Shown in pieces: positions 5,899 through 58,269 of a stretch of 64,000 nucleotides of DNA. A model generated the notes under the pieces. The model saw only the letters and a list, made by a program, of their open reading frames with translations. It did no database searches and had not been told where the DNA came from. Where the stretch lies: assembly GCA_965199265.1 (NCBI GenBank), contig CBDAQV010000001.1, positions 444,409-508,408 of the forward strand, read 5' to 3'. The translations under genes and the position numbers were made by a program. Origin of the DNA: Alphaproteobacteria bacterium. Its GTDB lineage: Bacteria > Pseudomonadota > Alphaproteobacteria > CALMVH01. Within the stretch, counting starts at the first letter, position 1. Every line of letters starts with the position of its first letter.

Positions 5899-6008
5899 GC
5901 TGTCATCCTGAGCGCGGCAAAGGATCTTATACCCGCAAACAGCCTGGACAGGATTGAACATTCCAACGACTTCCTATGAAATCCTTTGCGGCGCTCAGGA
6001 TGACATAC
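5899..6008. repeat. Palindromic REP/MITE-like element (GTCATCC...GGATGAC family), copy 1.
   Basis: Left arm TGTCATCCTGAGCGCGGCAAAGGATCTTATA and right arm TATGAAATCCTTTGCGGCGCTCAGGATGACA form a near-perfect inverted repeat of about 30 bp (1-2 mismatches) around a 43 bp spacer. It lies between the degP start and the stop of the small secreted-protein gene. Confidence 0.7.
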
Positions 6009-6017
6009 GGTGGAAAA

Positions 6018-6371
6018 TTACCCGCCGCAGGTATTCAGGCAGCTGCGCAAATGGTCTGAGCAGTCGGACTCGGTGCCGATCAGCTGGCTGGCGAGGTTAT
6101 TCGAGTTGCGCAGCGCGTCCTGGTCGCCGGGCAGCGCGGCGCCTTGGTCGGTGCAAACCTCGTAGCTGCGGTTGCAGCTGTCCGTACAGGTCTGGGCGTC
6201 AGCGCCGGTCGTGTTAGACTTGCCGTTACCGGCGCGCTCGGGAGCGGAGGATGGACCTGCTCCTGCCGGGGGAGGCGCATCTATGCCCGTGGGCGAGGGA
6301 ACGTCGCTTGCAAACACGACGCCGGGCGCCAGCATGAGCGACAATGCCGCGAGAAGGAAGAACCTGTGCAT
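6018..6371 (-). CDS. Small secreted cysteine-rich hypothetical protein (about 117 aa).
   Basis: Internal ATG of the spurious 332-aa ORF. MHRFFLLAALSLMLAPGVVFA is a clear Sec signal peptide. The mature part carries six Cys (CTDSC, C, C, C-x6-C-x3-C). Codon usage is native. Confidence 0.5.
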   Translation of the reverse strand: MHRFFLLAALSLMLAPGVVFASDVPSPTGIDAPPPAGAGPSSAPERAGNGKSNTTGADAQTCTDSCNRSYEVCTDQGAALPGDQDALRNSNNLASQLIGTESDCSDHLRSCLNTCGG

Positions 6372-6400
6372 TATCGCGGCTCCTGGCCTGTTCGCGGGTT

Positions 6401-6832
6401 TTAAGCAGCTTCGTCGGAAAGGGCGTCTTCGTCGAAGCTCTGTTTCGGCCCGCTGTCCAGGCCCTTGGCGGAAACATCGCGGTCGACCAGTTCGATGATC
6501 GCCATCGGCGCGGCGTCGCCGTAGCGAAAACCCGCCTTCAACACGCGCGCATAGCCGCCGGAACGATCCTTGTAGCGTTCGGCGATCACGTCGAACAGCT
6601 TGGTGACGATCGCGTCGTCGCGCAGCACGGCATGGGCGCGGCGGCGGTTGGCAAGACCGCCCTTCTTGCCCAGCGTGATCAGCTTCTCCACAACCGGGCG
6701 CAGTTCCTTGGCCTTGGGCAGGGTGGTCTTGATCTGCTCGTGCTTGATCAGCGCGTGCGCCATGTTCATGAACAAGGCCTTGCGGTGGCTTGAGGTGCGG
6801 CCCAGTTTCCGGCCGTGCATTCCGTGACGCAT
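6401..6832 (-). CDS. rplQ: 50S ribosomal protein L17.
   Basis: [57 protein letters not shown] is the L17 N-terminus. The start is taken at the internal ATG (codon 26 of the 168-aa ORF). Confidence 0.9.
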
Positions 6833-6941
6833 ATTCCCTGTCCTTCCATGGCGTGGCCCGCGGCGCGGAACCGATTGCGAATGCCCTTGCCCTGAGATCA
6901 GAAACAAGAGGGTGGACCTGTATGGTCCTTTTCCTTAAATC

Positions 6942-7012
6942 GTCATCTTTCGTGAAAGCGGAGATTCCCGTGCAGGTCCCGCGAGAGATCCTCTGCTTGC
7001 GCCGAGGATGAC
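6942..7012. repeat. Palindromic REP-like element, copy 2 (degenerate), between rplQ and rpoA.
   Basis: CGTCATCTTTCGTGAAAGCGGAGATTCCC ... GAGATCCTCTGCTTGCGCCGAGGATGACG. The GTCATC/GATGAC termini and the internal GCG-A-GG / GGATC blocks are shared with the other copies. Confidence 0.5.
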
Positions 7013-7022
7013 GCACATAAAT

Positions 7023-8036
7023 TTAATACGGCTCGTCCAGCTTGCGGGCGAGGTCCTCGATGTTCTCCGGCGGCCAGCCGGCCACCTGCATGCCCAGGTG
7101 CAAGCCCATGATGGACAGAACCTCCTTTATCTCATTCAGCGATTTGCGGCCGAAGTTCGGCGTGCGCAGCATCTCGCCTTCGCTCTTCTGCACCAGGTCG
7201 CCGATGTAGATGATGTTGTCGTTCTTCAGGCAGTTGGCCGAGCGGACCGAAAGTTCCAGCTCGTCGACCTTGCGCAGAAGGTTGCGGTTGAACGGCAGGT
7301 CTTCCTGACGGTCGGCGGCCGAGCCCGCCGTCGGCTCGTGGAAGTTGATGAACACGGCCAGCTGGTCCTGCATGATGCGCGCGGCATACGCGACCGCGTC
7401 TTCCGGCGACACGGCACCCGTGGTCTCGATCTGCATGGTGAGCTTGTCGTAATCGGTGATCTGACCGACGCGGGTGTTATCGACCTTGCACGTTACCTTG
7501 CGCACCGGGCTGAACACGCTGTCGATGGGGATGAGGCCGATCGGCGCGTCTTCCGGGCGGTTACTGGCCGCCGAGCGGTAGCCCTTGCCGTTTTGGACCG
7601 TCAGTTCCATCGTCAGCTTTGCGTCGCGGTCGAGCGTGCAGATGACGAGGTCGGGGTTCATGATCTCGATGTCGGGACCAGTCTCGATCATGCCGGCGGT
7701 GACCTCGCGCGGGCCTTCGGCCTTCAGGCGCATCCTCTTCGGACCTTCGGCATGCATGCGCAGCGCCAGGGACTTGATGTTAAGCACTACGTCCGTCACG
7801 TCCTCGCGCACACCGGGGATGGACGAGAACTCGTGCAGCACGCCCTCGATCTGGATCGAGGTCACCGCCGCGCCCTGCAGGGACGACAGCAGGATACGGC
7901 GCAGGCTGTTGCCCAGCGTCACGCCGTAGCCGCGCTCCAGCGGCTCAGCGACAATGTTGCCGTAGCGGCGGGCATCGTGTCCGGCGTTCACGCCGAGCTT
8001 GCTCGGCTTGATCAGTTCGTTCCAGTTCTTGTGCAT
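7023..8036 (-). CDS. rpoA: DNA-directed RNA polymerase subunit alpha.
   Basis: The 337-aa protein has the N-terminal domain [11 protein letters not shown]..., the NTD dimerisation region and a C-terminal alpha-CTD ([23 protein letters not shown]). Confidence 0.95.
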
Positions 8037-8081
8037 CTGTTCCTCGGATAAACTAACGACCGGTCGCGACGGAAACGGGGT

Positions 8082-8477
8082 TCAGACGCGACGTCTTTTA
8101 GGCGGGCGGCAACCGTTGTGCGGGATCGGCGTGATGTCGCGGATAGTGGTGATGTTGAAGCCGACAGATTGCAAGGCGCGCAGCGCCGATTCACGGCCCG
8201 AGCCGGGTCCGGTCACTTCGACTTCCAGAACCTGCATGCCGTGCTCCTGCGCCTTGCGCCCCGCGTTCTCCGCCGCGATCTGCGCTGCGTACGGGGTCGA
8301 CTTGCGTGAACCCTTGAACTCCGACGATCCCGCCGATGCCCAGGCGATGGTATTGCCCTGCGCATCGGTGATCGTGATGATCGTGTTGTTGAAGCTGGCG
8401 TTCACATGCGCGACGCCGGACGTTATGTTCTTGCGTTCCTTGCGGCGCAAACGGTTCGCGCCTGGTTTCTCGGCCAT
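8082..8477 (-). CDS. rpsK: 30S ribosomal protein S11.
   Basis: [46 protein letters not shown] matches S11. Confidence 0.95.
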
Positions 8478-8522
8478 CTGATCCTATCCCGTCGCTTGAA
8501 GAGCGTTGCGTAAGCGCGAAGC

Positions 8523-8900
8523 TTACTTGGTGACTTTTTTCTTGCCGGCGATCGGCTTTGCCGGGCCCTTGCGGGTACGGGCATTGGTATGCGTGCGCTG
8601 GCCGCGGACCGGCAGTCCTTTGCGGTGACGCAGGCCGCGGTAGCAGCCCAGATCCATGAGGCGCTTGATGTTGATCGCCACTTCGCGGCGCAGGTCGCCT
8701 TCGACCTTGTACTGCCCGTCGATCACCTCGCGGATGCGGAAAATCTCGTCCTCGCTGAGGTCGGACACGCGGCGCTCGGGCTCGATACCCAGCTGATCGC
8801 AGATCAGCTTTGCCTGATGCGGGCCGACGCCATAGATGTACCGCAGCGAGATTTCGACCCGCTTGCCCGTCGGAATGTTAACACCTGCAATACGCGCCAC
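8523..8900 (-). CDS. rpsM: 30S ribosomal protein S13.
   Basis: [31 protein letters not shown] matches S13. Confidence 0.95.
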
Positions 8901-9065
8901 GCTTTACTCCTTGGCCTGAACCAGTGCCGATCGACAACGCGCCCTTTGCCAAAGGCTGTGCCCGACCGCTACGCCGGGCGTTGCAGTCGCGCTGAAGGCG
9001 CAAGAACGGATATCCGCATCGAAATGCCGGAAAGATGCGGCAATATAGGCAACCGTTCCGGCTCG

Positions 9066-9302
9066 TCAACACAAATTTACGGCTGGTTCATAGACTTCGC
9101 CAGCATCTCTGTATTGTGCCGCACCATGTCGAGGTACGTGCTCGCCGGCCCATCGCCGGGCGACAGCGCACCTCGACATCCTCGCCGCCGACTGCTTCAC
9201 CAGATCGCCGAGCACGCTGAAACTGGCTACGACCTTCAGGGGAGCCGCGCCTGCCACCGCAGGCGCGGCAAGCAGAGCCAAGACGAGAAAAGCTCGGATC
9301 AT
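9066..9302 (-). pseudogene. N-terminal remnant (about 78 codons) of a ZnuA/TroA-type metal-binding periplasmic solute-binding protein.
   Basis: Internal ATG gives MIRAFLVLALLAAPAVAGAAPLKVVASFSVLGDLVKQ..., i.e. signal peptide plus the cluster A-I SBP N-terminal motif (VVASFSVLGDLVKQ). The later VYEP resembles the conserved H-x-YEP block. Downstream the protein runs into a stop after 78 aa. A second frame (9088..9360) carries VGGEDVEV, which suggests frameshifts. Confidence 0.4.
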
Positions 9303-9366
9303 GGCGGGCCGTCCTGTTGAACCAAAACGCGGTCGTGCCAGCGCTGGCGGGCGGGCGCAAGGGAAG

Positions 9367-10101
9367 TCAGGGGCGATCGATCCGTTCGCTCTCCTCCACG
9401 GTGAACGGAGCGCGGGATAGCACGTACACATGATGCCGGACATGCGGCTTGCGCGCGAAGCTGACCGGAACACATCGGACGTGGAAGCCCGCCGCCTCGC
9501 CCCGCGACACGAAAGCAAGGCTCTCGAAGCCCGACCAGACCAGCAGAACTCCGTTTTCTCCAAGACAATGCGCCATCGCGCGCAAGCCGTCCTCGGCGTA
9601 GAGAAAGGTGTTTCCGGGCGCGGAAAGCGGCTCGGGACCGTTATCGACGTCGAGGGCTATCACGTCGAACGCCTGTCCTGAACGAAGGAGGTCCGAAACG
9701 TCGGTCCGGACGATCGTGACGTTCGCAGGCAACTGCTCGAACAGTATTGGCTGCATAAAGCGGCCAAACCAATCGATGATCGCGCCCGATATCTCGGCGA
9801 CGGTGACATGACCCGCCACGCCCATCTCGGCCGAAAGGCCGGCGAGGCTGTAGCCGAGACCGAGCCCGCCCAGCAGGATGCGCGGCAGCGTAGCCCGCGC
9901 AAACTGGAAGGCGAGGCGGCCGAGCGCATCCTCGGATTCGTGCCAGTGCCCGTTCATCAGCTCCAGCCCGCCCACTCGCACCATGTAGACCCCGTCGCTC
10001 TCGTAGAGGTCGAGGGCGTTTCCGGCGAGGGTGGAGGAGGCGATGGGGTTCCAGGGCATGTCTTTTCCTGATGTCATGCAGGACGCATGCTCGAAATTCA
10101 C
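9367..10101 (-). CDS. Spermidine/spermine synthase-like (PABS-fold) SAM-dependent methyltransferase-family protein.
   Basis: Glycine-rich SAM-binding-type block ILLGGLGLGYSL, then VIALDVDNGPEPL and a tetramerisation-like N-terminus. The 244-aa ORF could alternatively start at M15. Confidence 0.6.
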   Translation of the reverse strand: MNFEHASCMTSGKDMPWNPIASSTLAGNALDLYESDGVYMVRVGGLELMNGHWHESEDALGRLAFQFARATLPRILLGGLGLGYSLAGLSAEMGVAGHVTVAEISGAIIDWFGRFMQPILFEQLPANVTIVRTDVSDLLRSGQAFDVIALDVDNGPEPLSAPGNTFLYAEDGLRAMAHCLGENGVLLVWSGFESLAFVSRGEAAGFHVRCVPVSFARKPHVRHHVYVLSRAPFTVEESERIDRP

Positions 10102-10164
10102 ACTGTCGTTTATTGCTGCGCAAACGAATTACTGCGCTGCGCGCCGAAATGACAGTGGTACAGG

Positions 10165-22438: not shown

Positions 22439-25312
22439 ATGACCACTGCTACTGCCGCGACAGCGCAAGACTTGGGTAACCCGCTAAAGCAACTCGAGCT
22501 GTTCGGCCAGTCGCCCTGGCTTGACAACGTCAACCGCGCCGACCTGTCCAAAGGCGTGATCGAAAAGATGGTCGAGGAAGACGGCCTGAAAGGCGTAACC
22601 TCCAACCCCGCCATCTTCGAAAAGGCAATGGGCGGCTCGGACGTGTACGACGCACAGCTGAAATCGCTGCTCGACGCGCACGGCACATCGGCGGGCGACC
22701 TGTACGAGGAAATGGCCATCCAGGACATTCGCGACGTCGCTGAGAAGCTGAAGGGCGTCTATCACGCAAGCGACAAGGTCGACGGCTACATCAGCCTCGA
22801 AGTCTCGCCCTACCTTGCCAACGACACGGAAGGGACGCTGAACGAGGCACGCCGCCTGTGGAAGACGGTCGCGCGCGAGAACCTCATGGTCAAGGTTCCG
22901 GCAACCCCTGCGGGCATTCCAGCCGTCGAAACGCTGATCGGCGAAGGCATCAACATCAACGTCACGCTGCTGTTCGCGCAAGGGGAGTACCGCAAGGTCG
23001 CCGAAGCCTACATTGCCGGGCTGGAGAAATTGGCGTCGAGCGGCGGGGATGTGTCGAAGGTGGCGAGCGTCGCCAGCTTCTTCGTTTCGCGCATCGACAC
23101 GCTGGTCGATGCGCAGCTGGACGAGAGGGTCAAGAACGGCGGCGACAAGGAGCTGTGCGAGCGCCTGAAGGGCAAGGTCGCAATCGCCAATGCCAAGCTG
23201 GCCTACCAGATGTACAAGCAGATGTTCTCGGGCGCGAAGTGGGAAGCGCTGAAGGCAAAGGGCGCGCATCCGCAGCGCCTGCTCTGGGCCTCGACCTCGA
23301 TGAAGAACAAGGCCTACAGCGATGTACTGTATGTCGAGGAGCTGATCGGCCGCGAGACGGTCGATACCATCCCGCCGGCGACGATGGATGCCTTCCGCGA
23401 CCACGGCAAGCCGAAGGACAGCCTGGAAATGGACGTCGAAGGCGCCACGCGCGTTATGGACGACCTGAAGAAATCGGGTATTTCGATCGAGGACGTCGGC
23501 AAGACCTTGGTCGAGAACGGCGTGCAGCTGTTCGCCGATGCGTTCGACCAGCTGCTCGGCACGGTCGAGAAGAAACGCGTGGCGCTGCTGGGCAACCGGC
23601 TGAACGGCATGAGCTACCAGCTCGACGACAAGCTGGGCGCGGCTGTGAAGGAAAACATCGAAAGCTGGCGCAAGTCGGGCTTGACGCGCAAGGTCTGGAG
23701 CAAGGACGCTTCGGTCTGGACCGGCGCCGACGAGGGCCAGTGGCTGGGCTGGCTCAACATCGTCGACGAACAGATCGACAAGGTCACGACGCTGAAAGAC
23801 CTGGCCGAGCGGGTGAAGGGCGGCGGCTTCACCCATGTCCTGCTACTGGGCATGGGCGGTTCCAGCTTGGGCCCGGAAGTGTTTGCCGAGACTTTCGGCA
23901 AGCAGGACGGTTACCCTCAGTTGCTGGTTCTGGACTCGACCGATCCGCAGCAGATCAAGAGCTTCGAGGACAGGATCGACCTTGCGAAGACGCTGTTCAT
24001 CGTCTCCAGCAAGTCGGGTTCGACGCTCGAGCCGAACATCTTCCAGAAGTATTTCTACGAGCGCGCGAAGTCGGTGCTCGGCGACCGGGTGGGCGAGCAT
24101 TTCATCGCGATCACCGACCCCGATTCGCACATGCAGGAAGTGGCGCAGCAGGACAAGTTCTCCGCCACCTATTTCGGGCTGAAAACCATCGGCGGCCGGT
24201 ATTCGGTACTTTCGAATTTCGGCCTGGTGCCCGCGGCCGCGATGGGCGTCGATGTCGACGCGTTCCTGACCAGCACGGCCGAGATGGTCCGCGCTTGCGA
24301 CGCCAACGTTCCTGCCAACGAGAACCCCGGCCTCATCCTCGGCGCCATCCTTGGCACAGCCGGCAAGCACGGCCGCGACTACGTGACCATCGTCGCCTCT
24401 CCCGAGCTGTACGATTTCGGCGCGTGGGCGGAGCAGCTGATTGCCGAATCCACCGGCAAGATTGGCAAGGGCCTGATCCCCGTCGATCTGGAGCCGCTGG
24501 GCGCGCCCGACGTCTACGGGCCATACCGCACCTTCGTCTACCTGCGCTCGCAAAACTCCGATGCGAAGCAGGATGCGGCGCTGGAGGCCTTGGCTAAGGC
24601 AGGACATCCTGTCGTTCGCATCGACATTGCCGACAAGGCCCAGCTGGGGCAGGAGTTCTTCCGCTGGGAGTTCGCCATTGCGGTCGCGGGCTCGATCCTC
24701 GGCATCGACCCTTTCAACCAGCCGGATGTCGAGGCCAGCAAGGTCGAGACCAAGAAGCTGACCACCGCCTATGAGCAAAGCGGGTCGCTGCCTCCGGAAA
24801 CGCCGATCTTCGAGGAAGGCGGCGTCAGGCTGTTCACCGATCCTGAGAACGCGAAGGCCCTGGAAGCGGCGGTCGGCGGCGACAAGTCGTTGAAGGGTTA
24901 CCTCAAAGCGCATTTCGCCCGCGTCAAGCCGAACGACTACATCGGACTGCTTGCCTACATCGAGCACAACGAGGCGAATACCGAAGCGGTTCAGTCGATG
25001 CGCGTCCAGCTGCGTGACAAGACGAAGGCGGCGACCGTGGTCGGCTTCGGACCACGCTTCCTGCACTCGACGGGGCAGGGGTACAAGGGCGGGCCGAACA
25101 CCGGCATCTTCCTGCAGATCACGGCGGACGACGCGCACGACCTGGCTGTGCCGGGACAGAAATACACGTTCAGCGTCGTCAAGGCGGCGCAGGCGCGCGG
25201 TGATTTCGACGTTCTGGCAGAGCGGCATCGCCGGGCATTGCGGGTGCACATCGGCAGCGACGTCGCGGCGGGTCTGAAAACTTTGGCCGGCGCTGTCGCG
25301 TCCGCCCTTTAA
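22439..25312 (+). CDS. Bifunctional transaldolase / glucose-6-phosphate isomerase.
   Basis: The N-terminal roughly 370 aa are transaldolase ([12 protein letters not shown]..., [10 protein letters not shown]). The C-terminal roughly 580 aa are PGI ([16 protein letters not shown], sugar isomerase domains). The protein is 957 aa. Confidence 0.9.
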
Positions 25313-26360: not shown

Positions 26361-27923
26361 ATGAGCATCCAATCGATGTCGCCGGGCAAGATAGAAGGTC
26401 AGGTGGCGAAAGCGCCCGGTCCGTGCATGATGGTCATCTTCGGGGCAACCGGAGATTTGACGAAACGCCTGCTTGTCCCCGCGATCTACAACCTCCTGAA
26501 CGCGAATTTGCTGCCGGAGCACTTTTCCCTTCTCGGCGTGTCTCGCAGCGGTGAAAGCGATGAGGCGTTCCGCGACGAACTCAACGAGTTCATCCAGGAA
26601 AACGCCAAGAAGAAAAATCAGGAAATGGGAGCCGACACTCCAGGCGGAAAGGCGTGGGACGGCCTGTTGCAAAGGACGCATTATTTCGTCGGCGATTTCG
26701 ACGATGCGGAAACCTACGCCGGGCTGAAAGCGAAGATAGAAGAGTTGGAGAAGACGTACCAGACAGGTGGTAACGTCTTGTTCTACCTGGCCACCGCGCC
26801 GAGCTTCTTCGCCAAGATCATCAAGCGTCTGGGGGAGGCCGGCCTCTCGCGGGAAGACAAGGGCTGGCGCCGCGTCATCATCGAAAAACCGTTCGGCAAC
26901 GACCTGAAATCGGCGCGCGAACTCAACCGCGAAATCCTGGAAGTGCTGCAGGAAAGCCAGGTTTTCCGCATGGACCATTTCCTGGGCAAGGAAACAGTCC
27001 AGAACATCATGGCGATGCGCTTCGCCAACGGCTTTTTCGAGCCCCTGTGGAACCGCAACCACATCGATCACGTCCAGATCTCGGTGACCGAGACCGTAAC
27101 GGTGGAAAAGCGCGGCAAGTTCTATGAGGCGATCGGCGCGATGCGCGACATGGTGCCGAACCACCTGTTCCAGCTGCTGACGCTGGCGGCCATGGAGGTA
27201 CCGCAATCCTTCGACGCCGACGCGGTGCGGAACGAGAAGGTCAAGTTGCTGCATTCGGTCCAGCCGTTCACGGAGCAGACGGCGCGTGAGTGGGCGATCC
27301 GCGGCCAGTACGGCGCGGGCAACATCGCCGCGCGTGCCGTCAAGGACTACCGTCACGAGGACGACGTGGATCCGAACTCCAACCGTGAAACCTATGTCGG
27401 CATGAAGCTGATGATCGACAACTGGCGCTGGGCCGGGGTGCCGTTCTACCTGCGTACCGGCAAGGCGCTGGCCAAGCGCGAATCGGAAATCGCCATTCGC
27501 TTCAAGCAGGCGCCGTTCACGATGTTCCCGGAAATTCCGGTCGCGAACCTCTCGCCCAACTACATGGTTCTGCACATCCAGCCCGATGAAGGCATATCGA
27601 TGACCTTCAACGCCAAGGTGCCCGGGCCGACCGTGCGGATGGAAGGCGTGACCATGCGTTTCAACTACAAGGATTATTTCGAGGAAGTCCCGCGCACCGG
27701 TTACGAGACGCTGCTCTACGATTGCATGATGGGCGAAGCCACTTTGTTCCAGCGCGCCGACAACGTCGAGGCGGGCTGGGAGGTCGTGCAGCCGATCCTC
27801 GACCTGTGGGAAAACGAGAAAGCAGTCGACTTCCCCAACTACACAGCAGGCAGCTGGGGGCCGAAGGCAGCGGACGAACTGCTCGAAAAGGACGGCAATT
27901 GCTGGCGCACAACCAATGACTAA
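26361..27923 (+). CDS. zwf: Glucose-6-phosphate 1-dehydrogenase.
   Basis: IFGATGDLTKRLLVPAIYNL, DHFLGKE and RIDHYLGK-type motifs. The protein is 520 aa. Confidence 0.95.
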   Translation: MSIQSMSPGKIEGQVAKAPGPCMMVIFGATGDLTKRLLVPAIYNLLNANLLPEHFSLLGVSRSGESDEAFRDELNEFIQENAKKKNQEMGADTPGGKAWDGLLQRTHYFVGDFDDAETYAGLKAKIEELEKTYQTGGNVLFYLATAPSFFAKIIKRLGEAGLSREDKGWRRVIIEKPFGNDLKSARELNREILEVLQESQVFRMDHFLGKETVQNIMAMRFANGFFEPLWNRNHIDHVQISVTETVTVEKRGKFYEAIGAMRDMVPNHLFQLLTLAAMEVPQSFDADAVRNEKVKLLHSVQPFTEQTAREWAIRGQYGAGNIAARAVKDYRHEDDVDPNSNRETYVGMKLMIDNWRWAGVPFYLRTGKALAKRESEIAIRFKQAPFTMFPEIPVANLSPNYMVLHIQPDEGISMTFNAKVPGPTVRMEGVTMRFNYKDYFEEVPRTGYETLLYDCMMGEATLFQRADNVEAGWEVVQPILDLWENEKAVDFPNYTAGSWGPKAADELLEKDGNCWRTTND

Positions 27924-29667: not shown

Positions 29668-29690
29668 ATCCTTCTCTCCTGATTTTCTGC

Positions 29691-29765
29691 CATCCTCCGC
29701 GAAAGCGGGGATTTCCTCGGAACGCCGCTTATCCTGAACGGAATTCCCCGCTCGCGCGGAGGATA
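29691..29765. repeat. Palindromic REP-like element (variant), between the FBA gene and rpe.
   Basis: CATCCTCCGCGAAAGCGGGGATTTCC and its near reverse complement GGAATTCCCCGCTCGCGCGGAGGATA, around a 23-bp spacer. Confidence 0.55.
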
Positions 29766-29785
29766 ACGGTTCAAGGAAAGGACCA

Positions 29786-36169: not shown

Positions 36170-36274
36170 TCCCTCTCCCGGTGGGAGAGGGTTAGGGTGA
36201 GGGGCTTTTCCTGCGCCGCCGATTGCCCCCCACCCGCCCGGCTTTGCCGGTCGACCTCTCCCGCAGGGAGAGGT
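36170..36274. repeat. Two REP-like stem-loops (CCCTCTCCC-ggt-GGGAGAGGG and CCTCTCCC-gca-GGGAGAGG) with an AGGGTGAGGGGC motif between them.
   Basis: Perfect 9-bp and 8-bp stems with 3-nt loops, read directly. The GGTGAGGG motif also occurs inside the 16704-16829 element. Confidence 0.55.
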
Positions 36275-38035: not shown

Positions 38036-39261
38036 GAGTCGACTTCCTCCGGTGTGTCCAATACACGACTCGCGTGCTGGCGAAATGCGCTGCGTACCGC
38101 CTCGTCCTCAATCAGGTCGATGGAGGAGCCGATGAAAGCCTCGATCAGCATCTGCCTGGCGAGCGCCTCGGGAAGCCCGCGCGAGCGCAAGTAGAACAGC
38201 GCGTCCGCGTCGAGCCGGCCCGATGTCGCGCCATGACTGCATTTGACGTCGTCGGCGTAGATTTCAAGCTCCGGCTTGGCATTTACTTCCGCCGTCGGCG
38301 ACAGCATCAACGACTGGTTCAGCTGGAAGCCGTCGGTCTTCTGCGCCCCCTCGGCAACGTAGATCTTGCCCTGGAACACCGAGCGCGACGTGCCGTCCAT
38401 CACATGGCGATAGGTCTCGCGGCTGCGGCACTGCGGGGCGGCGTGGACGATCTCGGTCGTGGTGTCCGCATGAGCGTTGCCGGCCAGGACGTGCGCACCG
38501 TTCAGGCGGACTTCGGCGCCGGGTCCGGTCAGCTCGGCCTTTACCTGATGGCGCGACAGGCGGCCGCCCGTGGTCAGCGAGAAGCCGTCATAGAGCGAGC
38601 CTTTCGCTAGCTTGACCCCGCCGGTTGCCAGAAGCACGGCAGCATTGCCTGCATCCTGCAGGCGGTAATGGCGCAACCGAGCGCCGGAGCCGAGCTCGAT
38701 CTCGCTGACAACGGTGGACGAGCCCGTGCCTTCGTGGCGCTCGATCAGCGTGGCGGCGGCATTGTCACTCAGGATGACCAGCAGTCTGACGTGGCTGCGA
38801 GCCATGCCGGTGAAACACACCTCCACCGGCGGCTCGAGGGTGACACCTGCGGGCACGAACAGCGCCAGCCCGTCGCTGAACAGGGCTGTGTTGAGGGCCT
38901 CGACCGCCTGCTCCTGAGGCGCGACCCGGGCCAGCATCGCTTTGGCATTTCCGGCATGGATGCTGCCGGCGAACACGCCAGAAGGTACCGTTCCGGAGGA
39001 TAGGCCGGAGTCGAGCGCGCCATCGACGAAGACCAGCCGAATGCCGCCGGCGACAAGCGGCGCGGGAACCGGCTCGGCATCGACCACCGCCGGTGTGATG
39101 CCATGAAACGGGCGGAGGTCGGTGTATTTCCAGCTTTCCAGGCGGGGCGTCGGCATGCCCAGCGCGGCATAGCGCGCCGCCCCGCCGCTGCGCACCGCGT
39201 TCAGCCAGTCGGCCCCGTTCGGAAGGTCGAGCAGTTCGTCGGTTTTGGGGAAGAGAGTCAT
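38032..39261 (-). CDS. sufD: Fe-S cluster assembly protein SufD.
   Basis: SufB/SufD beta-helix family. The start is taken at the internal MTLFPKTDELL (39261), because the upstream 33 codons of the ORF track are a translated REP element. Confidence 0.85.
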   Translation of the reverse strand: MTLFPKTDELLDLPNGADWLNAVRSGGAARYAALGMPTPRLESWKYTDLRPFHGITPAVVDAEPVPAPLVAGGIRLVFVDGALDSGLSSGTVPSGVFAGSIHAGNAKAMLARVAPQEQAVEALNTALFSDGLALFVPAGVTLEPPVEVCFTGMARSHVRLLVILSDNAAATLIERHEGTGSSTVVSEIELGSGARLRHYRLQDAGNAAVLLATGGVKLAKGSLYDGFSLTTGGRLSRHQVKAELTGPGAEVRLNGAHVLAGNAHADTTTEIVHAAPQCRSRETYRHVMDGTSRSVFQGKIYVAEGAQKTDGFQLNQSLMLSPTAEVNAKPELEIYADDVKCSHGATSGRLDADALFYLRSRGLPEALARQMLIEAFIGSSIDLIEDEAVRSAFRQHASRVLDTPEEVDS

Positions 39262-39279
39262 GCGGCTTTCCCCAAGCTC

Positions 39280-39411
39280 GTCATCCCTGCGAAGGCCGGG
39301 ATCCATGGTCTGGCGAACGTTATTTTGGAAGATGGCAGCTCGACCTTTGCAACTTTCCATCCATCCGTCCGCAGAAGCTGAGCCATGGATCCCCGCCTTT
39401 GCGGAAATGAC
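39280..39411. repeat. Palindromic REP-like element (GTCATCC...GGATGAC family) inserted between sufC and sufD.
   Basis: GTCATCCCTGCGAAGGCCGGGATCCATGG ... CCATGGATCCCCGCCTTTGCGGAAATGAC, roughly 29-bp arms around a 74-bp spacer. Confidence 0.65.
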
Positions 39412-39430
39412 AATGAAAGGAGGTTGGACA

Positions 39431-40186: not shown

Positions 40187-40191
40187 TGTTA

Positions 40192-42478: not shown

Positions 42479-42540
42479 AGCAGACTAAACTGGTCCTGTT
42501 TATCTATCCCGCCAGCCGGGAAGTCAAGTACAAGGAGGCC

Positions 42541-42646
42541 GTCATCCCGGGCAAGGCGAAAGGTCTACGCCAAGCCGATGATGGTACTGAAACCCTTTTT
42601 CTTCTGGAAATGCGGAAGCAAGATCCTTCGCCTTGCTCAGGATGAC
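42541..42646. repeat. Palindromic REP-like element upstream of the rrf2-suf operon.
   Basis: GTCATCCCGGGCAAGGCGAAAGGTC ... GATCCTTCGCCTTGCTCAGGATGAC, about 25-bp arms around a 56-bp spacer. Confidence 0.65.
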
Positions 42647-42648
42647 AA

Positions 42649-46817: not shown

Positions 46818-46847
46818 CCCCGTTCAGAACGGGGCCTTTTGCGTCAC
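46818..46847 (-). terminator. Rho-independent terminator downstream of pnp (and structurally bidirectional).
   Basis: GGCCCCG-ttctgaa-CGGGGCC followed by TTTTTTCT on the minus strand, 12 nt after the pnp stop. Confidence 0.6.
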
Positions 46848-46858
46848 AAACAGGCCGT

Positions 46859-48970: not shown

Positions 48971-49158
48971 ATTTCTATCCTTTCATTCCGTGTACCCGCT
49001 TCGCGCTCATCGCGATGCAGGGGTGGGGAGGGCATCCTCCCCCATGTTGTGTGCTTGATCTGGATCGATGCGAACTGCCGAGTGCGCTCGAAAGCAGCAT
49101 AAGTTGGTTGGAGTCAGCCAACTGTCTGATGAAATAACTACCGCTCTCATATCTGATT

Positions 49159-49253
49159 GTCGTTCCCCCGCGCAGGCGGGGAACCCATGGTCAAGCAGAC
49201 TACCGACAGCGATTGGTCCATACTATGGATCCCCCGCTTTCGCGGAGGATGAC
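49159..49253. repeat. Palindromic REP-like element in the rpsO-pnp intergenic leader.
   Basis: GTCGTTCCCCCGCGCAGGCGGGGAACCCATGG ... CCATACTATGGATCCCCCGCTTTCGCGGAGGATGAC. Confidence 0.6.
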
Positions 49254-49287
49254 AATATAAAGGACCGGCAACAATCATCCGTTCGGA

Positions 49288-49557: not shown

Positions 49558-49575
49558 CGGGAAACTCCTTGAGAT

Positions 49576-50505: not shown

Positions 50506-50609
50506 GGTTCGTCATCCTGACCTTGTTCACGACCCATGGTTCGGCGTACGCGGAAGAATGGGTCCCGGACCGCGGCGCTGACGCGCTTGCCCAAAATGAC
50601 GAATTTTAT

Positions 50610-50993: not shown

Positions 50994-51025
50994 GGTGCCG
51001 GGTGTTAACAGGATTGTAACGGGAG

Positions 51026-51931: not shown

Positions 51932-52007
51932 GAGATCGATTCGCTGAAGCGGGATGAACGGAGCGTCACCCCTTTCCCCGCATTACGGAAGGAGTGAGAT
52001 TTCACCA

Positions 52008-54638
52008 TCAGAGCGTTCGCGCCACCGATTCCACCTCGAACGCCTCGATGATGTCGCCGGCCTGGATGTTGTCGTAGTTCTCGAACGCCATGCCGCACTC
52101 GAAGCCTTCGCGCACTTCCCTGACCTCGTCCTTGAAGCGGCGCAGCGTCTTCAGCGTGCCCTCGTGGATCACGACGCCGTCGCGCAGCAGGCGGACGGAG
52201 GCGCCGCGCTTGACCAGGCCTTCGCTGATGTGGCAACCGGCGACCTTGCCGACCTTGGTGATGTTGAAGATCTGGCGGATCTCGGCGTTGCCCAGGAACT
52301 GCTCGCGCAGGGTCGGCTTCAGCATGCCCGAGAGCAGGCCGCGCACGTCGTCGAGGATGTTGTAGATCACCGAGTAGTAGCGAACCTCGACCGCGTCGCG
52401 CTTGGCCAGGTCGCGCGCCTGCGGGTTGGCGCGGACGTTGAAGCCGATGATGAAGCCGCCCGAGGCCCGGGCCAGCGTCACGTCGGACTCATTGATCGCG
52501 CCGACGCCCGAGTGCAGGACCCGCAGCGACACCTCGGTCGAATCAGCGGTCATCCGGGTCAGCGAGCCGGTGATCGCTTCCACAGAGCCCTGCACGTCGC
52601 CCTTGACCACCACGGCGAGCTCCTTCTTCTCGCCCGCCTGGATCTGGGTGAACATCTGGTCCAGAGAGCCGCGCGCGCCGATGGCAGCGGCGGCGCTGCG
52701 GTCCTTGCGCTCGCGGAACTCGGCGATCTCGCGCGCTTTCGCTTCGTCCTCGACCACGACGAAGTCGTCGCCGGCGTTAGGCGTGCCGTTGAGTCCGAGG
52801 ATCTCGACCGGAAACGCAGGGCCGGCATCGACCACGCCTTGCCCGCGGTCGTTGACCAGCGCGCGGACGCGGCCCCACTCGGCGCCGGAAACGAAGATGT
52901 CGCCGACTTTGAGCGTGCCTTTCTGCACCAGCACGGTCGCGACCGGGCCGCGGCCGCGATCCAGCTTGGCTTCCACCACCGCGCCGACGGCGGTGCGGTC
53001 CGGATTGGCTTTCAGGTCAAGGATTTCGGCCTGCAGCAGGATGGCTTCCTCGAGCTTGTCGAGGCCGATCTTGGATTTCGCCGAGACTTCGACCGCTAGC
53101 ACGTCGCCGCCCATTTCCTCGGTCTGCAGGTCGTATTGCAGCAGGTCCTGGCGGACCTTGTTCGCGTTGGCGTCGGGCAGGTCGATCTTGTTGATGGCGA
53201 CGATGATCGGCACCTTTGCTGCCTTGGCGTGGGCGATGGCCTCCACGGTCTGCGGCATGATGCTGTCGTTGGCGGCGACCACCAGCACGACGACATCCGT
53301 CACGTTCGCGCCGCGTGCGCGCATTTCGGTGAAGGCGGCGTGGCCCGGCGTGTCGATGAAGGTGATCTTCTGGCCGCCCTTCAACGTGACCTGATATGCG
53401 CCGATATGCTGCGTGATGCCGCCGGCTTCGCCGCTGACCACGTCGGTGCGGCGGATCGCGTCCAGCAGCGAGGTCTTGCCGTGATCGACGTGGCCCATGA
53501 CGGTGACGACGGGCGGACGCGGCAGCAGCTGCTCGTGGCGGTCCTCGTCGCCGCTCATGCCGATCTCGATGTCGGATTCGGCGACGCGGCGGATGCGGTG
53601 GCCGAACTCTGTCGCCACCAGCTCGGCGGTATCGGCGTCGATATCCTGGTTGATGGTCGCCATCACGCCCATGCGCATCAGCGATTTGATGACGTCCGCG
53701 CCACGCTCGGCCATGCGGTTCGCGAGCTCCTGGACCGTGATGGTCTCTGGAATGGTGACGTCGCGCGTGATCTTGCCGTCACCCTCGTTGCCGAACAGGC
53801 GCAGGCGTTCCTTTTCGTTGCGGCGGCGCATCGCGGCGACGCTGCGGCCGCGTACCGTATCGCCCTCGTCGTTCAGCGCCTGCGTCACCGTCATGCGATG
53901 CTGGCGGCGGACATCGGTCTTCTTGGTCGTCGGCACGGGAGCCCGCGCGGCGGGGCGCACGGCGCGCTTGACGCGGGCCCTCGCTTCCTCCTCCTCGTCG
54001 GCGGCGCTGACGCTGGGAGCGCGGCCCATCAGCGCAGCGACCTTTGCCGCCGCGGAAGTTCCTGAGTTATCGGTGGGCCGGCGGCCATCGGCAGCGCTGC
54101 GCTTGGCCTCGCCCTCGCGGCGGATCTGCTCAGCTTCGGCGGCCGTGCGCTTCTCGTCCTCTTGGATCGAGCGCAATTCGTCCAGTTCGCGCTGGCGCAG
54201 GTCTTCAGCGGTCAGCGGCCTTTTCGGCTCCGGGGTTGGAGCTTCCGGCTCGGCGGGCGGCGCGCCGGGGACCGGCATGGTGTCGCGCCAGACGTGGCTG
54301 GAGCGCTCGGGCCGTTCCGGTCGGTCGGCAGCGCCACGCAACGCCTGCACGCGCGCTTCGCGTTCCTCGCTGGTCAGCTGTCGCGCCGGGCGTCCACCCG
54401 CCGGCCGGGACGCTGGCGCACTGGCGAGGGCCGGAGCGGCGGACGCGGAAACTGGAGGCGCCGGCAGGTCACCTTCCGGCCCGCGCTTGCGCTTGACCTC
54501 CACGGCAACGGTTTTCGACCGGCCATGCGAAAAGCTTTGCCGCACGAGGTTCGCATCGGCTCCGCGCTTCAACTCCAGCTTGCCCCTGCTGGACAGGCTG
54601 AGAACCTTTTTCGGTTCCTGATCGGTAGTGTCGCTCAT
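52008..54638 (-). CDS. infB: Translation initiation factor IF-2.
   Basis: G-domain ([28 protein letters not shown]) and IF2 C-terminal domains. The protein is 876 aa. Confidence 0.95.
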
Positions 54639-54649
54639 TCGTATCCCAA

Positions 54650-55315
54650 CTATTCCGTAACGTCGTGAACCGGTGCGGTCAGCGCTTTCAGCTTGTCCCC
54701 AAGGGAGATCACCCTGGCGGCATGCGCTTTGTCGCTAATTCCGGCATAAACTACAATGCCGATTGTGCCGAAAATGCCGCCAAGCACCCGGCTGTCGAGC
54801 ACATCGATGATATGGGTGCCGGGGCTGAGCGCTTCCAGCTTGCCGCGGCCGTCTTTTCCCGCATCGGAGGCAACGAGCAGCGCCTGCAGCCTTTTGGCCC
54901 GCGCCCACCCCTCGACCTTCTCGAACCCGGATGTTGCCGTGCCGGAGCGGCGCGCGAAACCGATCGCCTCCACCATGCGCTGGCGCAGCAGATCGACGAC
55001 GCGCTGGGCGCAGTCGGGCGGCACTCTCACGGCGCGGCGCGCGGCGCGCGAGAACACATTCTTCTTCAGCGCGGCGCCAAGCGTCGCCCGGTCGGCGGTG
55101 ATCCAGAGTCCACGGCCCGGCAGCTTTTCCGCGATATCTGGCACCAGCACGCCCTGCGGATCGATGGAGAAGCGTAACAGGTTGCCCTTGGGCAGCACAT
55201 GGCCCGTGACCAGGCATCGGCGCTCGGGACCTGTCGGTTCGCTTTCCGGCAGTTCGACCTCTGGCAGTTCGACCTCCGGCGCATCGTCTGAGATTAGGGG
55301 GACGCCGGACGACAT
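54650..55315 (-). CDS. YlxR/DUF448-family RNA-binding protein fused to an L7Ae-like domain.
   Basis: [18 protein letters not shown] matches the DUF448 motif. It has the conserved nusA-infB intergenic position. Confidence 0.7.
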
Positions 55316-55330
55316 GTGGCGGTTCCTACC

Positions 55331-56845
55331 TCATGCCTGGTCCGCGGCGGCGGGCTCGTCGGCGTCTTCCGCCTCGAACCATTTCGCGCGCAGCGACATG
55401 ATGATGTGCTCGGCGTCCACGGCGCTGAGAGCCCGCGCGCCGACGATCTCGATCAGCTCGTCTGTGGCAAGATCCGCCAGGTCGTCCACCGACTTGATGC
55501 CCTTTTCGCCCAGCGCCACCAGCATGGTGGGGGTCAGCCCTTCGACCGTCGCCAGCTCGTCGGATACGCCCAGCTCGATTCGCTTGCTCAGCAGTTCCTC
55601 GTCGCGCGCGGCAAGGTAATTGTCGGCGCGGTTTTTCAGTTCCTGCGCCACGTCCTCGTCGAAGCCTTCGATATTCGCCAGCTCGTCCAGGGAAGTCCCC
55701 GAGATTTCCTCGATCGAGGTGAAACCCTCGGCGATCAGCAGGTGGGCAATGACATCGTCGACTTCCAGCGCTTCGATGAACAGGCCCGAGCGGGTGCTGA
55801 ACTCTTCCTGGCGGCGCGCCGACTCCTCGGCTTCGGTCAGGATGTCGATGTCCAGCCCGCTCAGCATGGAGGCTAGGCGGACGTTCTGGCCGCGGCGGCC
55901 GATGGCAAGGCTGAGCTGGTCATCGGGAACCACGACTTCGATGCGGCCGTTCTCGTCGTCTAGAACCACCTTGGTGACTTCTGCGGGGGCCAGCGCGTTC
56001 ACGACGAAGGTGGCGGTATCGTCCGACCACGGGATGATGTCGATCTTTTCGCCATGCAGCTCGCCGACCACCGCCTGGACCCGGCTGCCGCGCATGCCGA
56101 CACAGGCGCCGACGGGGTCGATCGAGCTGTCGCGGCTGACCACCGCGATCTTGGCGCGGCTGCCGGGGTCGCGCGCAACCGATTTGATGGTGATGACGCC
56201 GTCGTAGATTTCCGGCACTTCCTGCGTGAACAGCTTGGCCATGAACTGCGGGTGCGAGCGCGACAGGAATATCTGCGGCCCGCGGATTTCCGGGCGCACG
56301 TCGTAGATGTAGGCGCGGACGCGGTCGCCGGTGTTGAAATGCTCGCGCGGCAGCGACTCGTCGCGGCGCAGCACGGCCTCGGCCTTGCCGAGGTCGACGG
56401 TCACGTTGCCGTACTCGACCCGCTTGACGGAGCCGTTGACGATCTCGCCGACGCGGTCCTTGAACTCCTCGAATTGGCGCGTGCGCTCGGCCTCGCGCAC
56501 TTTCTGCACGATCACCTGCTTGGCGGTCTGCGCGGCGACGCGGCCGAAATCGATCGGCGGCAGGTCGTCGACCAGGAAGTCGCCGACCTTGGAGTCGGCC
56601 TTGATGCCCTTGGCCATTTCCGGCGTAATCTGCGTCGCTTCGTTCTCGATCGGGTCGGCGACCTCGCGGTAACGGCGCAGCAGGATGTCGCCGCTGCGAC
56701 GGTCGATGACGGCGCGGATGTCATGCTCGTGGCCGTACTTGCTGCGCCCGGCCTTCTGGATCGCTTCCTCCATCGCGGCGAGGACCTCGTCGCGATCGAT
56801 GTTCTTTTCCCGCGCTACCGCGTCGGCGACTTGCAGCAGTTCCAT
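55331..56845 (-). CDS. nusA: Transcription termination/antitermination factor NusA.
   Basis: N-terminal RNAP-binding domain, S1 and KH1/KH2 domains (GACVGMRGSRVQAVVGEL), and C-terminal AR repeats. The protein is 504 aa. Confidence 0.95.
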   Translation of the reverse strand: MELLQVADAVAREKNIDRDEVLAAMEEAIQKAGRSKYGHEHDIRAVIDRRSGDILLRRYREVADPIENEATQITPEMAKGIKADSKVGDFLVDDLPPIDFGRVAAQTAKQVIVQKVREAERTRQFEEFKDRVGEIVNGSVKRVEYGNVTVDLGKAEAVLRRDESLPREHFNTGDRVRAYIYDVRPEIRGPQIFLSRSHPQFMAKLFTQEVPEIYDGVITIKSVARDPGSRAKIAVVSRDSSIDPVGACVGMRGSRVQAVVGELHGEKIDIIPWSDDTATFVVNALAPAEVTKVVLDDENGRIEVVVPDDQLSLAIGRRGQNVRLASMLSGLDIDILTEAEESARRQEEFSTRSGLFIEALEVDDVIAHLLIAEGFTSIEEISGTSLDELANIEGFDEDVAQELKNRADNYLAARDEELLSKRIELGVSDELATVEGLTPTMLVALGEKGIKSVDDLADLATDELIEIVGARALSAVDAEHIIMSLRAKWFEAEDADEPAAADQA

Positions 56846-56863
56846 CTATCCGTCTTCCTTGGG

Positions 56864-57397
56864 TCAGGCCGCCCGCTTGTTCGCGGCCAGCAGTTCGTCG
56901 TTGAGTATCAGCCGGGCGCGCTTCAGCGCCGAAAGCGCCAGCGCGTGATCCTTGCCGGCTTCGTCGCGCAGCGTCACCGTATCGCCTTCGCAGGCGGTGA
57001 TACGGCCCTTGAATTTGGACTGCCCGTCCACCGGCGCGGTCGTCTCCATCTTGACCTCGAACCCTGCCCAGCGGGCGAAGTCCTTGGGCCGGGTCAGCAG
57101 CCGGTCGATCCCGGGCGAGCCGACTTCCAGCGTGTACGGCTCGGCGATCGGATCGGCCTCGTCCAGCGCCGCCGAAACCGCGCGGCTGATCACGCCGCAA
57201 TCGTCGATGCCGACGTTCGTGCCGTCCGGCCGCTCGGCCATGATCTGCAGGTTGCCGCCGGCCAGCGACAGGCGAACCAGCTCGAACCCCAGCGTTTCGA
57301 TTACGGGAACGACCACCGGCGCAAGTGGCTCCGCGGCCGCATCCACCATCAAAGCCGAATACTTGTCCGTACCTTCCGCCACCAGGGCTCCCGCCAT
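56864..57397 (-). CDS. rimP: Ribosome maturation factor RimP.
   Basis: VIETLGFELVRL...LEVGSPGIDRLL matches RimP. The start is taken at the internal ATG at 57397, because the upstream part of the ORF overlaps a terminator hairpin. Confidence 0.8.
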   Translation of the reverse strand: MAGALVAEGTDKYSALMVDAAAEPLAPVVVPVIETLGFELVRLSLAGGNLQIMAERPDGTNVGIDDCGVISRAVSAALDEADPIAEPYTLEVGSPGIDRLLTRPKDFARWAGFEVKMETTAPVDGQSKFKGRITACEGDTVTLRDEAGKDHALALSALKRARLILNDELLAANKRAA

Positions 57398-57425
57398 AAA
57401 AAAAGTGGGCCGCGAGCCCACTTGG
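57398..57425 (-). terminator. Rho-independent terminator after trmB.
   Basis: Minus strand: GTGGGC-tcgcg-GCCCAC followed by TTTTTTT (the plus strand shows AAAAAAAGTGGGCCGCGAGCCCAC). Confidence 0.65.
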
Positions 57426-57483
57426 TTGTTGAGATCAGATTTCAGCAAGATATAGCCGGTCGCTCTGTAGGACGCAAGCCGGA

Positions 57484-58269
57484 TCATATACGTTCCGCGC
57501 CGTAGTAGAACGGCCGCCGTCCCCGGTCGAGCGCCTTCTGCTCGTAACGCGTCGCCGGCCAGTCGGCGGGGCGGTCCTGCGGGTCCCTACCGCTGGCGGG
57601 GTGCAGAATAAATGACGGGTGCGCCGGCACCGCTTCGCGATACCACTCGGCCAGCCCTCGATCGTCCGTCGCCAGTAGCAACTCCCCGCCGGGCCGCAAC
57701 ACGCGGGCAAGGTCGGTCAGGGTCTCGGGGTTCACGATGCGGCGCTTGTTGTGCCGTTTCTTCGGCCAGGGATCGGCGAACAGGATGAAGCACCGCGCGA
57801 TGCTTCCGTCGGGCAGGGCTTTGAGCAGGAAGCGCGCGTCCTCGGTGAACACGCGCACGTTGGACAGGCCCTCCTGCTCCAGCCGCTTCACCAGCATCGA
57901 GATGCCGTTGACGAACGGCTCGCAGCCGATGAGGCCGATGCCCGGATGGCGGCGCGCCTGTTCCGCCAGGTGCTCGCCGCCGCCGAAGCCGATCTCCAGC
58001 CAGACTTCCTGTTTTCCTTTGAAAACGTGCCTGTCATCCTCGGGCTCGACCCAAGGATCTCGCTCCCTGCGAGGCCCGGTCTGCCGGAGATCCTGCGTCT
58101 TCGCGGAGGATGACGGCTCGTTGAGGAGGAATGGCAGCCGTCCCTCGCCATCCAGCGCAATCCGGTACTTCGGCAGGCCGCTCTCCAGCGCCGCGGCGCG
58201 CGCGGGGTTCAGCGGGCGGGCGGTGCGCCGGCCGTAGAACTGCGAGCGGGGAAGGGCAGGTTCCTGTGA
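57484..58269 (-). CDS. trmB: tRNA (guanine46-N7)-methyltransferase TrmB. The 5' end is uncertain (no in-frame ATG) and the N-terminal linker contains a translated REP element.
   Basis: A manual minus-strand translation upstream of the listed ORF continues in frame: ...RSQFYGRRTARPLNPARAAALESGLPKYRIAL...EVWLEIGFGGGEHLARQARRHPGIGLIGCEPFVNGISMLVKRLEQEGLSNVRVF...FADPWPKKRHNKRRIV. That is the full TrmB architecture. Confidence 0.75.
   Translation of the reverse strand, partial: SQEPALPRSQFYGRRTARPLNPARAAALESGLPKYRIALDGEGRLPFLLNEPSSSAKTQDLRQTGPRRERDPWVEPEDDRHVFKGKQEVWLEIGFGGGEHLAEQARRHPGIGLIGCEPFVNGISMLVKRLEQEGLSNVRVFTEDARFLLKALPDGSIARCFILFADPWPKKRHNKRRIVNPETLTDLARVLRPGGELLLATDDRGLAEWYREAVPAHPSFILHPASGRDPQDRPADWPATRYEQKALDRGRRPFYYGAERI
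58033..58114. repeat. Palindromic REP-like element lying inside the trmB reading frame.
   Basis: GTCATCCTCGGGCTCGACCCAAGGATC ... GATCCTGCGTCTTCGCGGAGGATGAC. It translates in frame as ...SSSAKTQDLRQTGPRRERDPWVEPEDDRHV..., about 27 extra residues in the normally short linker before EVWLEIGFGGGEHL. Confidence 0.6.

Follow-up and report, generated by a model that had tools for sequence, protein, structure and literature searches.

A 64,000-nucleotide stretch of an Alphaproteobacteria bacterium genome (GenBank assembly GCA_965199265.1, contig CBDAQV010000001.1, positions 444,409–508,408 of the forward strand; GTDB lineage CALMVH01), here called the window, is a segment of an alphaproteobacterial chromosome with a GC content of about 63%. 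Scattered among its genes, which include rpoA, rplQ, sufC, sufD, rpsO, pnp, rbfA, truB and trmB, are nine copies of a short repeat built from one or two tagged hairpin units. We assign these copies, with a probability of roughly 85%, to the CGTC-tagged repetitive extragenic palindromes (REPs), chiefly to type CGTC-1 in the form of head-head dimers, and regard them as a lineage-specific expansion of known alphaproteobacterial non-autonomous repeats. The class was defined by Di Nocera, De Gregorio and Rocco (2013; BMC Genomics 14:522, PMC3733652). The copies are new members of this published class; the only mildly notable points are the copy that lies in frame within trmB and the lineage-specific density of the repeat.

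Copies in the window and their flanking genes

The genes next to the copies were identified by Pfam scans of about 60 open reading frames (ORFs), and the boundaries of the first seven copies (E1–E7) were refined so that the tag bases are included. E1 (5901–6005, 105 nt) is a head-head REP dimer with a predicted folding energy of -52.9 kcal/mol (z = -7.2); it lies 12 nt past the stop codon of a small secreted ORF (6018–6371, minus strand) and 29 nt ahead of the start of a DegP/HtrA-like gene. This ORF, located between rplQ and the DegP-like gene, encodes 117 residues with a signal-peptide-like N-terminus and has no Pfam match. E2 (6941–7013, 73 nt) is a head-head dimer in the spacer between rpoA and rplQ, 9 nt past the rpoA stop and 108 nt ahead of the rplQ start. 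E3 (29688–29768, 81 nt; fold z = -5.8) is a head-head dimer with the degenerate tags TGCC and CGTT; an aldolase gene of the DeoC/LacD type ends 20 nt before it, and rpe follows after 17 nt. E4 (39279–39412, 134 nt; -66.9 kcal/mol), likewise a head-head dimer, separates sufC from sufD, being placed 18 nt past the sufC stop and 17 nt ahead of the likely sufD start at 39261. The head-head dimer E5 (42540–42647, 108 nt; fold z = -4.9) begins 1 nt past an amidase stop codon and lies 61 nt ahead of the start of an Rrf2-family regulator gene. E6 (49158–49254, 97 nt) is the best-preserved copy, with a 9-bp stem, a GAAA loop and a CCA tail; this head-head dimer sits in the spacer between rpsO and pnp, about 33 nt past the rpsO stop and about 187 nt ahead of the pnp start, with a folding energy of -53.6 kcal/mol (z = -6.4) and a covariance-model score of 50.2 bits. 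E7 (58032–58115), a head-head dimer of 84 nt (28 codons), lies in frame inside trmB.

Two further copies complete the set. E8 (50510–50601) is a probable decayed head-head dimer, CGTCATCC...AAATGACG, located 8 nt past the rbfA stop and 4 nt ahead of the truB start. Both of its tags are CGTC and its fold has z = -3.2; the call is of moderate confidence because the match to the covariance model is weak (8.7 bits). An earlier reading of the window, made from the letters and an ORF list and referred to below as the sequence-only reading, had reported a half-site at 50519–50553; element sequence is indeed present there, and it is better read as part of this probable decayed pair. The other addition, which that reading had missed, is a single CGTC-type REP unit at 1062–1089 on the minus strand (CGTC ATTCCGTG CGCAG CACGGAAG CCA). 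It was found by a structural scan and scores 15.7 bits with the covariance model (E about 0.1); its tag lies 1 nt past the stop of an ATP12-family gene (1091–1786, minus strand), in a gap between convergent genes. The census of the window is thus seven or eight head-head dimers, one singleton and no tail-tail dimer, and the local density over the nine copies is 17 units in 64 kb.

All eight intergenic copies begin 1–33 nt after the upstream stop codon, with the downstream gene 4–187 nt away. Seven of them are dimers flanked by co-directional genes, and the eighth, the singleton, has convergent neighbours. When uniform placement within each spacer is taken as the null, the bias toward the upstream stop codon has a p value of about 0.01–0.02 (the sufD start was later set at 39261, which slightly raises the mean in this test). 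The sequence-only reading had described the placement as non-random and had located copies inside an operon and inside a gene. The first statement is borne out by this clustering at stop codons, the second by the rpoA–rplQ and sufC–sufD spacers and the third by the copy at 58032–58115.

Statistical support for the element set

The seven palindromic loci originally proposed are all inverted pairs of related arms, well beyond what chance would give. Their 14 arms align mutually when set in one orientation. Exact GTCATCC...GGATGAC pairs 40–140 nt apart occur three times in the 64-kb window, compared with 0.02 expected, and 100 first-order Markov simulations gave a maximum of one pair. As the sequence-only reading had suggested, a hidden Markov model (HMM) and a covariance model of the arms were built. 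The HMM separated the 14 arms from the rest of the window, none of them scoring below 11.9 bits. The strongest match after these (9.6 bits, 26433–26457) was rejected as an element; it falls in conserved coding sequence close to the 5' end of the gene for glucose-6-phosphate dehydrogenase. The covariance model (R1) was trained on 14 units of 29 nt aligned without gaps, of which 11 were drawn from metagenome contigs outside the window. With filters off it recovered 13 of the 14 window arms, and eight arms absent from the training set scored E < 0.1; the arm that it missed, the left arm of E5, is too degenerate.

Each pair is predicted to fold as one long hairpin (-29 to -67 kcal/mol, z-scores from -2.3 to -7.2). 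The spacers between the arms measure 16–80 nt and their mutual similarity is not above that of shuffled controls, in agreement with the variable and non-conserved spacer described before. A generic scan for YGTC followed by a hairpin gave about 2.4 matches per shuffled window and was used as a pointer only, since it is too permissive. No Rfam family reached its gathering score anywhere in the window; at a relaxed threshold one microRNA match appeared around E6 and E8 and was judged to be due to chance. A BLAST search of E6 against plasmids returned two marginal, uninformative matches.

Anatomy of the unit

Each arm is a small hairpin by itself and not merely half of a palindrome, and the tags point outward in every pair. 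The tag is unpaired and reads CGTC or TGTC in 12 of the 14 arms, the other two being the arms of E3; the singleton and both arms of E8 are tagged CGTC. Parsed from the outside in, the stem comprises 8–9 bp in 13 arms and 10 bp in one. It opens with an A-T pair followed by a T-A pair in 11 of the 14 window arms, and a comparison of 26 units gave A-T at position 1 in 22 and T-A at position 2 in 24. Well-preserved arms have loops of 4–5 nt, a length seen in seven of the 14 window arms (GAAA, GCAA, GAAG, AAAG, GCGA or CTCGA). The remaining arms parse with 3- or 6-nt loops, their inner stems being either decayed or of a 'TGAGC...GC' subtype. The tail is CCA in both arms of E4, both arms of E6 and the singleton, and CTC, CTT, TTC or TCC elsewhere. 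Both arms of E4 combine an 8-bp stem and a 4-nt loop with the CCA tail.

Across the gap-free alignment of 14 units, 95% of the cells of the 9-bp stem are paired, compared with 36–49% when the partner columns are slid, and four of the nine stem pairs, at inner positions, have changed on both sides. RNAalifold gave no structure on a MAFFT alignment of the mixed-length arms, in which the 3' halves are out of register, and was replaced by the outside-in parse and the gap-free alignment. Partner arms share 76% identity and arms of different copies 59% (permutation p = 5e-5), so the copies form subtypes, each of which keeps its own palindrome. The sequence-only reading had taken such covariation of the arms as a sign that the palindrome is maintained. 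Its statistical part stands, in the p value and in the stem pairing; its explanation is no better than another, as the subtype pattern fits compensatory maintenance and the spread of whole dimers from different founders equally well.

Assignment to the CGTC-tagged REPs

As described by Di Nocera et al. (2013), CGTC REPs carry a CGTC or TGTC tag, stems of 8–9 bp that nearly always start with a complementary A-T, loops of 4–5 nt and a 3-nt tail that is mostly CCA. They occur mostly as head-head dimers with spacers of 20–100 bp, tail-tail dimers being rare, and are found between unidirectional or convergent ORFs near the 3' end of the upstream ORF. Many dispersed copies are present per genome, the class is prevalent in Alphaproteobacteria and no transposase is associated with it (Di Nocera et al., 2013). 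The tag, stem, head-head arrangement and post-stop placement of the window copies agree with these criteria. The original suggestion of a REP-like family, or one resembling bacterial interspersed mosaic elements (BIMEs), therefore holds for the unit anatomy and the paired arrangement, which match this superfamily.

The left arm of E4 (GTCATCCCTGCGAAGGCCGGGATC) translates to VIPAKAGI, which is identical to the peptide listed for the CGTC-1 unit in Rickettsia conorii RC0483, and a CGTC-1 unit also lies inside the R. conorii tRNA-G-N7-methyltransferase gene, trmB (RC1314) (Di Nocera et al., 2013). Together, these two observations tie the window copies to CGTC-1. The copies depart from the published CGTC-1 units in several respects: their host belongs to an undescribed lineage, their stems are GC-rich (ATCCNCCGC) and not the ATTCCCGC implied by the peptides of the paper, many of their tails read CTC or CTT instead of CCA, and several arms are decayed.

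Other families of bacterial palindromes are further removed. REPINs, the GTAG doublets of Pseudomonas and Enterobacteria that are mobilized by REP-associated tyrosine transposases (RAYTs), share with the window copies the inverted units, the folding into one long hairpin, the intergenic location, the lack of target duplication and the presumed spread as a unit. The tag in the window is YGTC/CGTC, however, and not GTAG, and no RAYT is encoded there. The REP/BIME elements of Escherichia coli also consist of palindromic units in inverted pairs located after genes, but their tag is GTAG and their unit sequence is different; their roles were established by experiment, whereas those in the window are suggested by analogy. 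For annotation, the copies should be labelled as REP (CGTC-type) repeat regions and not as small ORFs, terminators or miniature inverted-repeat transposable elements (MITEs).

Relatives and metagenome copies

The nearest named organism is Roseiterribacter gracilis (Rhodospirillales), with 86% identity in RpoA; the closest TrmB among 5.8 billion proteins is 60% identical. In R. gracilis rplQ is followed directly by the protease gene, 24 nt away, so that E1 and the small secreted ORF are both missing, and the rpoA–rplQ spacer aligns with a gap at the position of E2. On the contig that carries the gene for the closest TrmB, the order of the genes between metK and truB matches that of the window, and no unit occurs. 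The two nearest relatives thus lack copies at the syntenic sites. R1 gives ten matches of at least 16.7 bits in the 64 kb of the window, compared with five of at least 17 bits when 1.46 Mb of related loci are scanned.

Head-head dimers of another CGTC subtype (TGTCATGSCCGGRCTTGAYCCGGSCATCCA), with a 9-bp stem and a 5-nt loop, occur in other Rhodospirillales. One lies in the rpoA–rplQ spacer (L003, 11035–11135) and two lie just after rplQ (L070, 11489–11628; L027, 11576–11659). As these are the spacers that hold E2 and E1 in the window, they appear to have been occupied independently, by different CGTC subtypes, in several Rhodospirillales.

The sequence-only reading had named a genome-wide scan without further copies as a refutation. 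Further copies do exist in metagenomes, where the exact unit GTCATCCNCCGCGAAAGCGGNGGATC is present in at least 120 stretches. Among the matches listed, 111 arms have enough flanking sequence to show a partner; 42 of these are paired head-head and none tail-tail. In one contig (L197, 2745–2883, minus strand) the right arm of a CGTC-1 dimer is seemingly split by an extra segment of ~40 nt starting TGTCATCGGGCTCGC, which may represent one unit nested in another.

Mobility

The general appearance of the copies, with two inverted arms around a non-coding spacer, a length of 73–134 bp and several occurrences, recalls MITEs. These are shortened derivatives of an insertion sequence (IS); a DDE transposase recognizes their terminal inverted repeats, and the target is duplicated when they insert. 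The window does contain an IS of the IS5 family (12194–13090), and bacterial MITEs such as Correia/NEMIS, RUP and ERIC share the size range, the inverted ends and the co-transcription with neighbouring genes. The details argue otherwise. No consistent direct repeats flank any copy when boundary offsets of up to 4 nt are tried, the ends of the only IS in the window (GAGGCTGTTTGATAA...) are unrelated to the arms, and each arm is itself a self-folding tagged hairpin and not an IS end. The spacers are unrelated in sequence and in length, whereas MITE families share internal sequence. An origin as MITEs, which the sequence-only reading had kept as an alternative, is therefore highly improbable; the lack of target-site duplications, the dissimilarity of the arms to the ends of the window IS and the lack of a tyrosine transposase in the window support the REP assignment instead.

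The IS itself encodes a transposase with DUF4096 and DDE_Tnp_1 domains (12247–13074, plus strand) between 18-nt terminal inverted repeats (GAGGCTGTTTGATAAATC / GAATTATCAAACGGACTC) and has ATA on both flanks. It lies directly upstream of rpsM in a stretch of lower GC content (about 58–61%, 9–14 kb) that contains several ORFs without a Pfam match and may be an acquired island.

Tblastn searches of the window with eight RAYT/TIRYT sequences, taken from the supplement of the 2013 paper, returned no match, and the unrelated IS5-family DDE transposase was the sole transposase found by the Pfam scans of about 60 window ORFs. In four metagenome contigs tblastn detected RAYT-like fragments 0.2–2 kb from the unit. 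These are pseudogene fragments near CGTC-1 dimers (L197, 2380–2700; L138, 1075–1360; L191, 1677–1913; L133, 76–234); they are frameshifted and share 88–89% DNA identity with each other, and the four contigs have repeated segments in common. Intact homologs, some of them named Bradyrhizobium RAYTs (L203, L205 and L206), occur in Bradyrhizobium-like genomes that carry the unit, but are flanked by GTAG REPs (GTAGGGCGGATTA..., GTAGGGCGGATTAGCCGAAGGCGTAATCCGCC) and not by CGTC units. The Bradyrhizobium-type RAYT was rejected as the cognate transposase on these grounds. The failure of this lead agrees with the conclusion reached in 2013 and with the scarcity of Y1 genes in Alphaproteobacteria (Quentin et al., 2018).

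The copies would have arrived by insertion as whole dimers, probably moved by an enzyme acting in trans on the single-stranded DNA hairpin, as is thought for RAYTs and GTAG REPs, and they would survive in places that tolerate them, immediately past stop codons or within a disordered loop of a protein. We think of them as non-autonomous selfish repeats that are kept where they are harmless. How CGTC REPs spread is a question that has stood since 2013, and the high local density, the relatives without copies and the clean in-frame insertion would make this a reasonable lineage in which to seek the enzyme.

The in-frame copy inside trmB

The host gene of E7, trmB (57484–58272, minus strand), encodes a tRNA (guanine-N7)-methyltransferase. 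With its tag bases E7 encodes (P)SSSAKTQDLRQTGPRRERDPWVEPEDD(R), and the N-terminal segment (SQFYGRR...LPKYRI) and the methyltransferase core (VWLEIGFGGGEH...) share a single stop-free frame only by readthrough of E7. The corresponding segment is absent from 14 of 15 aligned homologs and falls in a linker of variable length. No column that is invariant across the 16 sequences is altered in the window TrmB. AlphaFold modelling gives residues 53–80 a predicted local distance difference test score (pLDDT) below 50 and no secondary structure, while the catalytic core scores above 90. E7 is accordingly predicted to sit in a disordered loop, and the 28 extra residues are to be understood as a repeat-derived loop and not as a domain.

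One homolog (P0002; L081, 790–920) carries another palindromic insert in the same N-terminal linker, CCTCACCC...GGGTGAGG followed by CCTCTCC..GGGGGAGG. This insert, which is unrelated to E7, marks the linker as a permissive site, and the N-terminal linker of TrmB seems to have received insertions repeatedly and to tolerate them.

Intragenic CGTC dimers are known as occasional occurrences that code for 20–30 residues (Di Nocera et al., 2013). The same authors assigned two Rickettsia palindromic elements to the class, RPE-4 to CGTC-4 and RPE-6 to CGTC-1. The insertion in frame into coding genes that are left intact is shared with these elements; the window host, however, is GC-rich and not a Rickettsia, and only one of the nine window copies is intragenic. 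E7 also differs from the unit in Rickettsia trmB in being a dimer in the N-terminal linker and in its position.

The 5' end of trmB is uncertain because no canonical start codon is in frame. In the interval 57897–58340 (minus strand) no in-frame ATG, GTG or TTG occurs upstream of 57897, though the conserved TrmB N-terminus is coded from about 58245. The CTG at 58272–58270 may serve as the start; in the closest relative, the first 49 nt of trmB overlap the end of metK.

Possible effects on transcripts

Once in place, the copies would be co-transcribed with their operons, and they can form hairpins of 26–48 bp. In E. coli, where a part in stabilizing mRNA has been proposed for these elements, REP hairpins block 3' exonucleases and, when very near a stop codon, can lower translation of the upstream gene. 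By analogy, the long hairpins in the window would probably impede 3'-to-5' exonucleases or be sites of processing, and would adjust relative expression at rpoA–rplQ, sufC–sufD and rpsO–pnp, as a side effect and not as the reason for their existence.

A rival view would be that the host evolved the copies, site by site, as regulatory RNA hairpins (terminators, attenuators or processing sites) that serve the genes on either side, and that they are not mobile. The strong predicted hairpins, the location of the intergenic copies just past stop codons between co-directional genes, and the presence of some inside operons whose genes might plausibly be expressed at different levels (rpoA–rplQ, sufC–sufD and rpsO–pnp) could be read in this way. 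The tagged unit recurs, however, at unrelated loci and in many unrelated metagenome contigs, the orthologous sites of the nearest relatives have no copies, one copy lies inside coding sequence and none matches an Rfam family. No run of T residues follows any copy on either strand, and no copy is among the terminator-like sites of the window; an intrinsic (Rho-independent) terminator was rejected for this reason. Folding of the sense and antisense strands is equal (mean difference +0.25 kcal/mol, with the sense strand more stable in five of eight copies), so that nothing singles out RNA. We therefore consider host-evolved regulatory hairpins quite unlikely.

The copies might also be kept because a DNA-binding protein recognizes them, for example as an operator palindrome or as a site for gyrase or a nucleoid protein. 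The outer 7-mers (GTCATCC / GGATGAC) are conserved with twofold symmetry, and the REP/BIME elements of E. coli are known to bind gyrase and integration host factor (IHF). The distance between half-sites varies from 73 to 134 nt, which is unfit for an operator, the neighbouring genes share no regulon and the copies are placed after genes and not at promoters. Retention as binding sites consequently appears barely credible.

A combined scenario, in which this lineage has an active route of its own for spreading CGTC REP dimers and some copies have been co-opted for RNA-level control of core genes, is speculative and on balance unlikely. It would draw on the local density, which is roughly 45-fold above that of related genomes, and on the lack of a nearby RAYT. 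The rpsO–pnp hairpin could then be a double-stranded processing site for autoregulation of polynucleotide phosphorylase (PNPase), and the rpoA–rplQ and sufC–sufD copies could set expression ratios in those operons.

Four points weigh against the assignment of the copies to an expanding CGTC REP family with side effects on RNA. A CCA tail is present in only four of the 14 arms, and loops are irregular in half of them. Arms of different copies share at most 86% identity and no two window copies are near identical, so there is no sign of recent movement. The case for insertion rests on distant relatives, at the RpoA and TrmB identities given above, and loss from those relatives would be an alternative. 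Finally, the effect on RNA is one that we infer purely from analogy, in the face of copies without a U-tract whose two strands fold alike.

Other features of the window

A second, unrelated palindromic repeat, CCTCTCCC-N3-GGGAGAGG, occurs at 36172–36190 and 36255–36273 (two seen, none expected). Both copies lie in the suf cluster between a FeS_assembly_P (SufT-like) gene and a NifU-like gene, and GTTAGGGTGAGGGG follows the first. A perfect 18-bp inverted repeat, CAGGGCAATCGCTTGAAG, is located just downstream of a glucodextranase/GH15 gene, with its arms (16704–16721 and 16812–16829) 90 nt apart. No tRNA gene was found in the whole 64 kb. A single ORF of 957 residues (22439–25312, plus strand) joins transaldolase and phosphoglucose isomerase domains. 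This tal-pgi ORF belongs to a pentose-phosphate cluster that consists of tkt, tal-pgi, gnd, zwf, a HAD-family hydrolase gene, an aldolase gene, rpe, pgl and rpiA.

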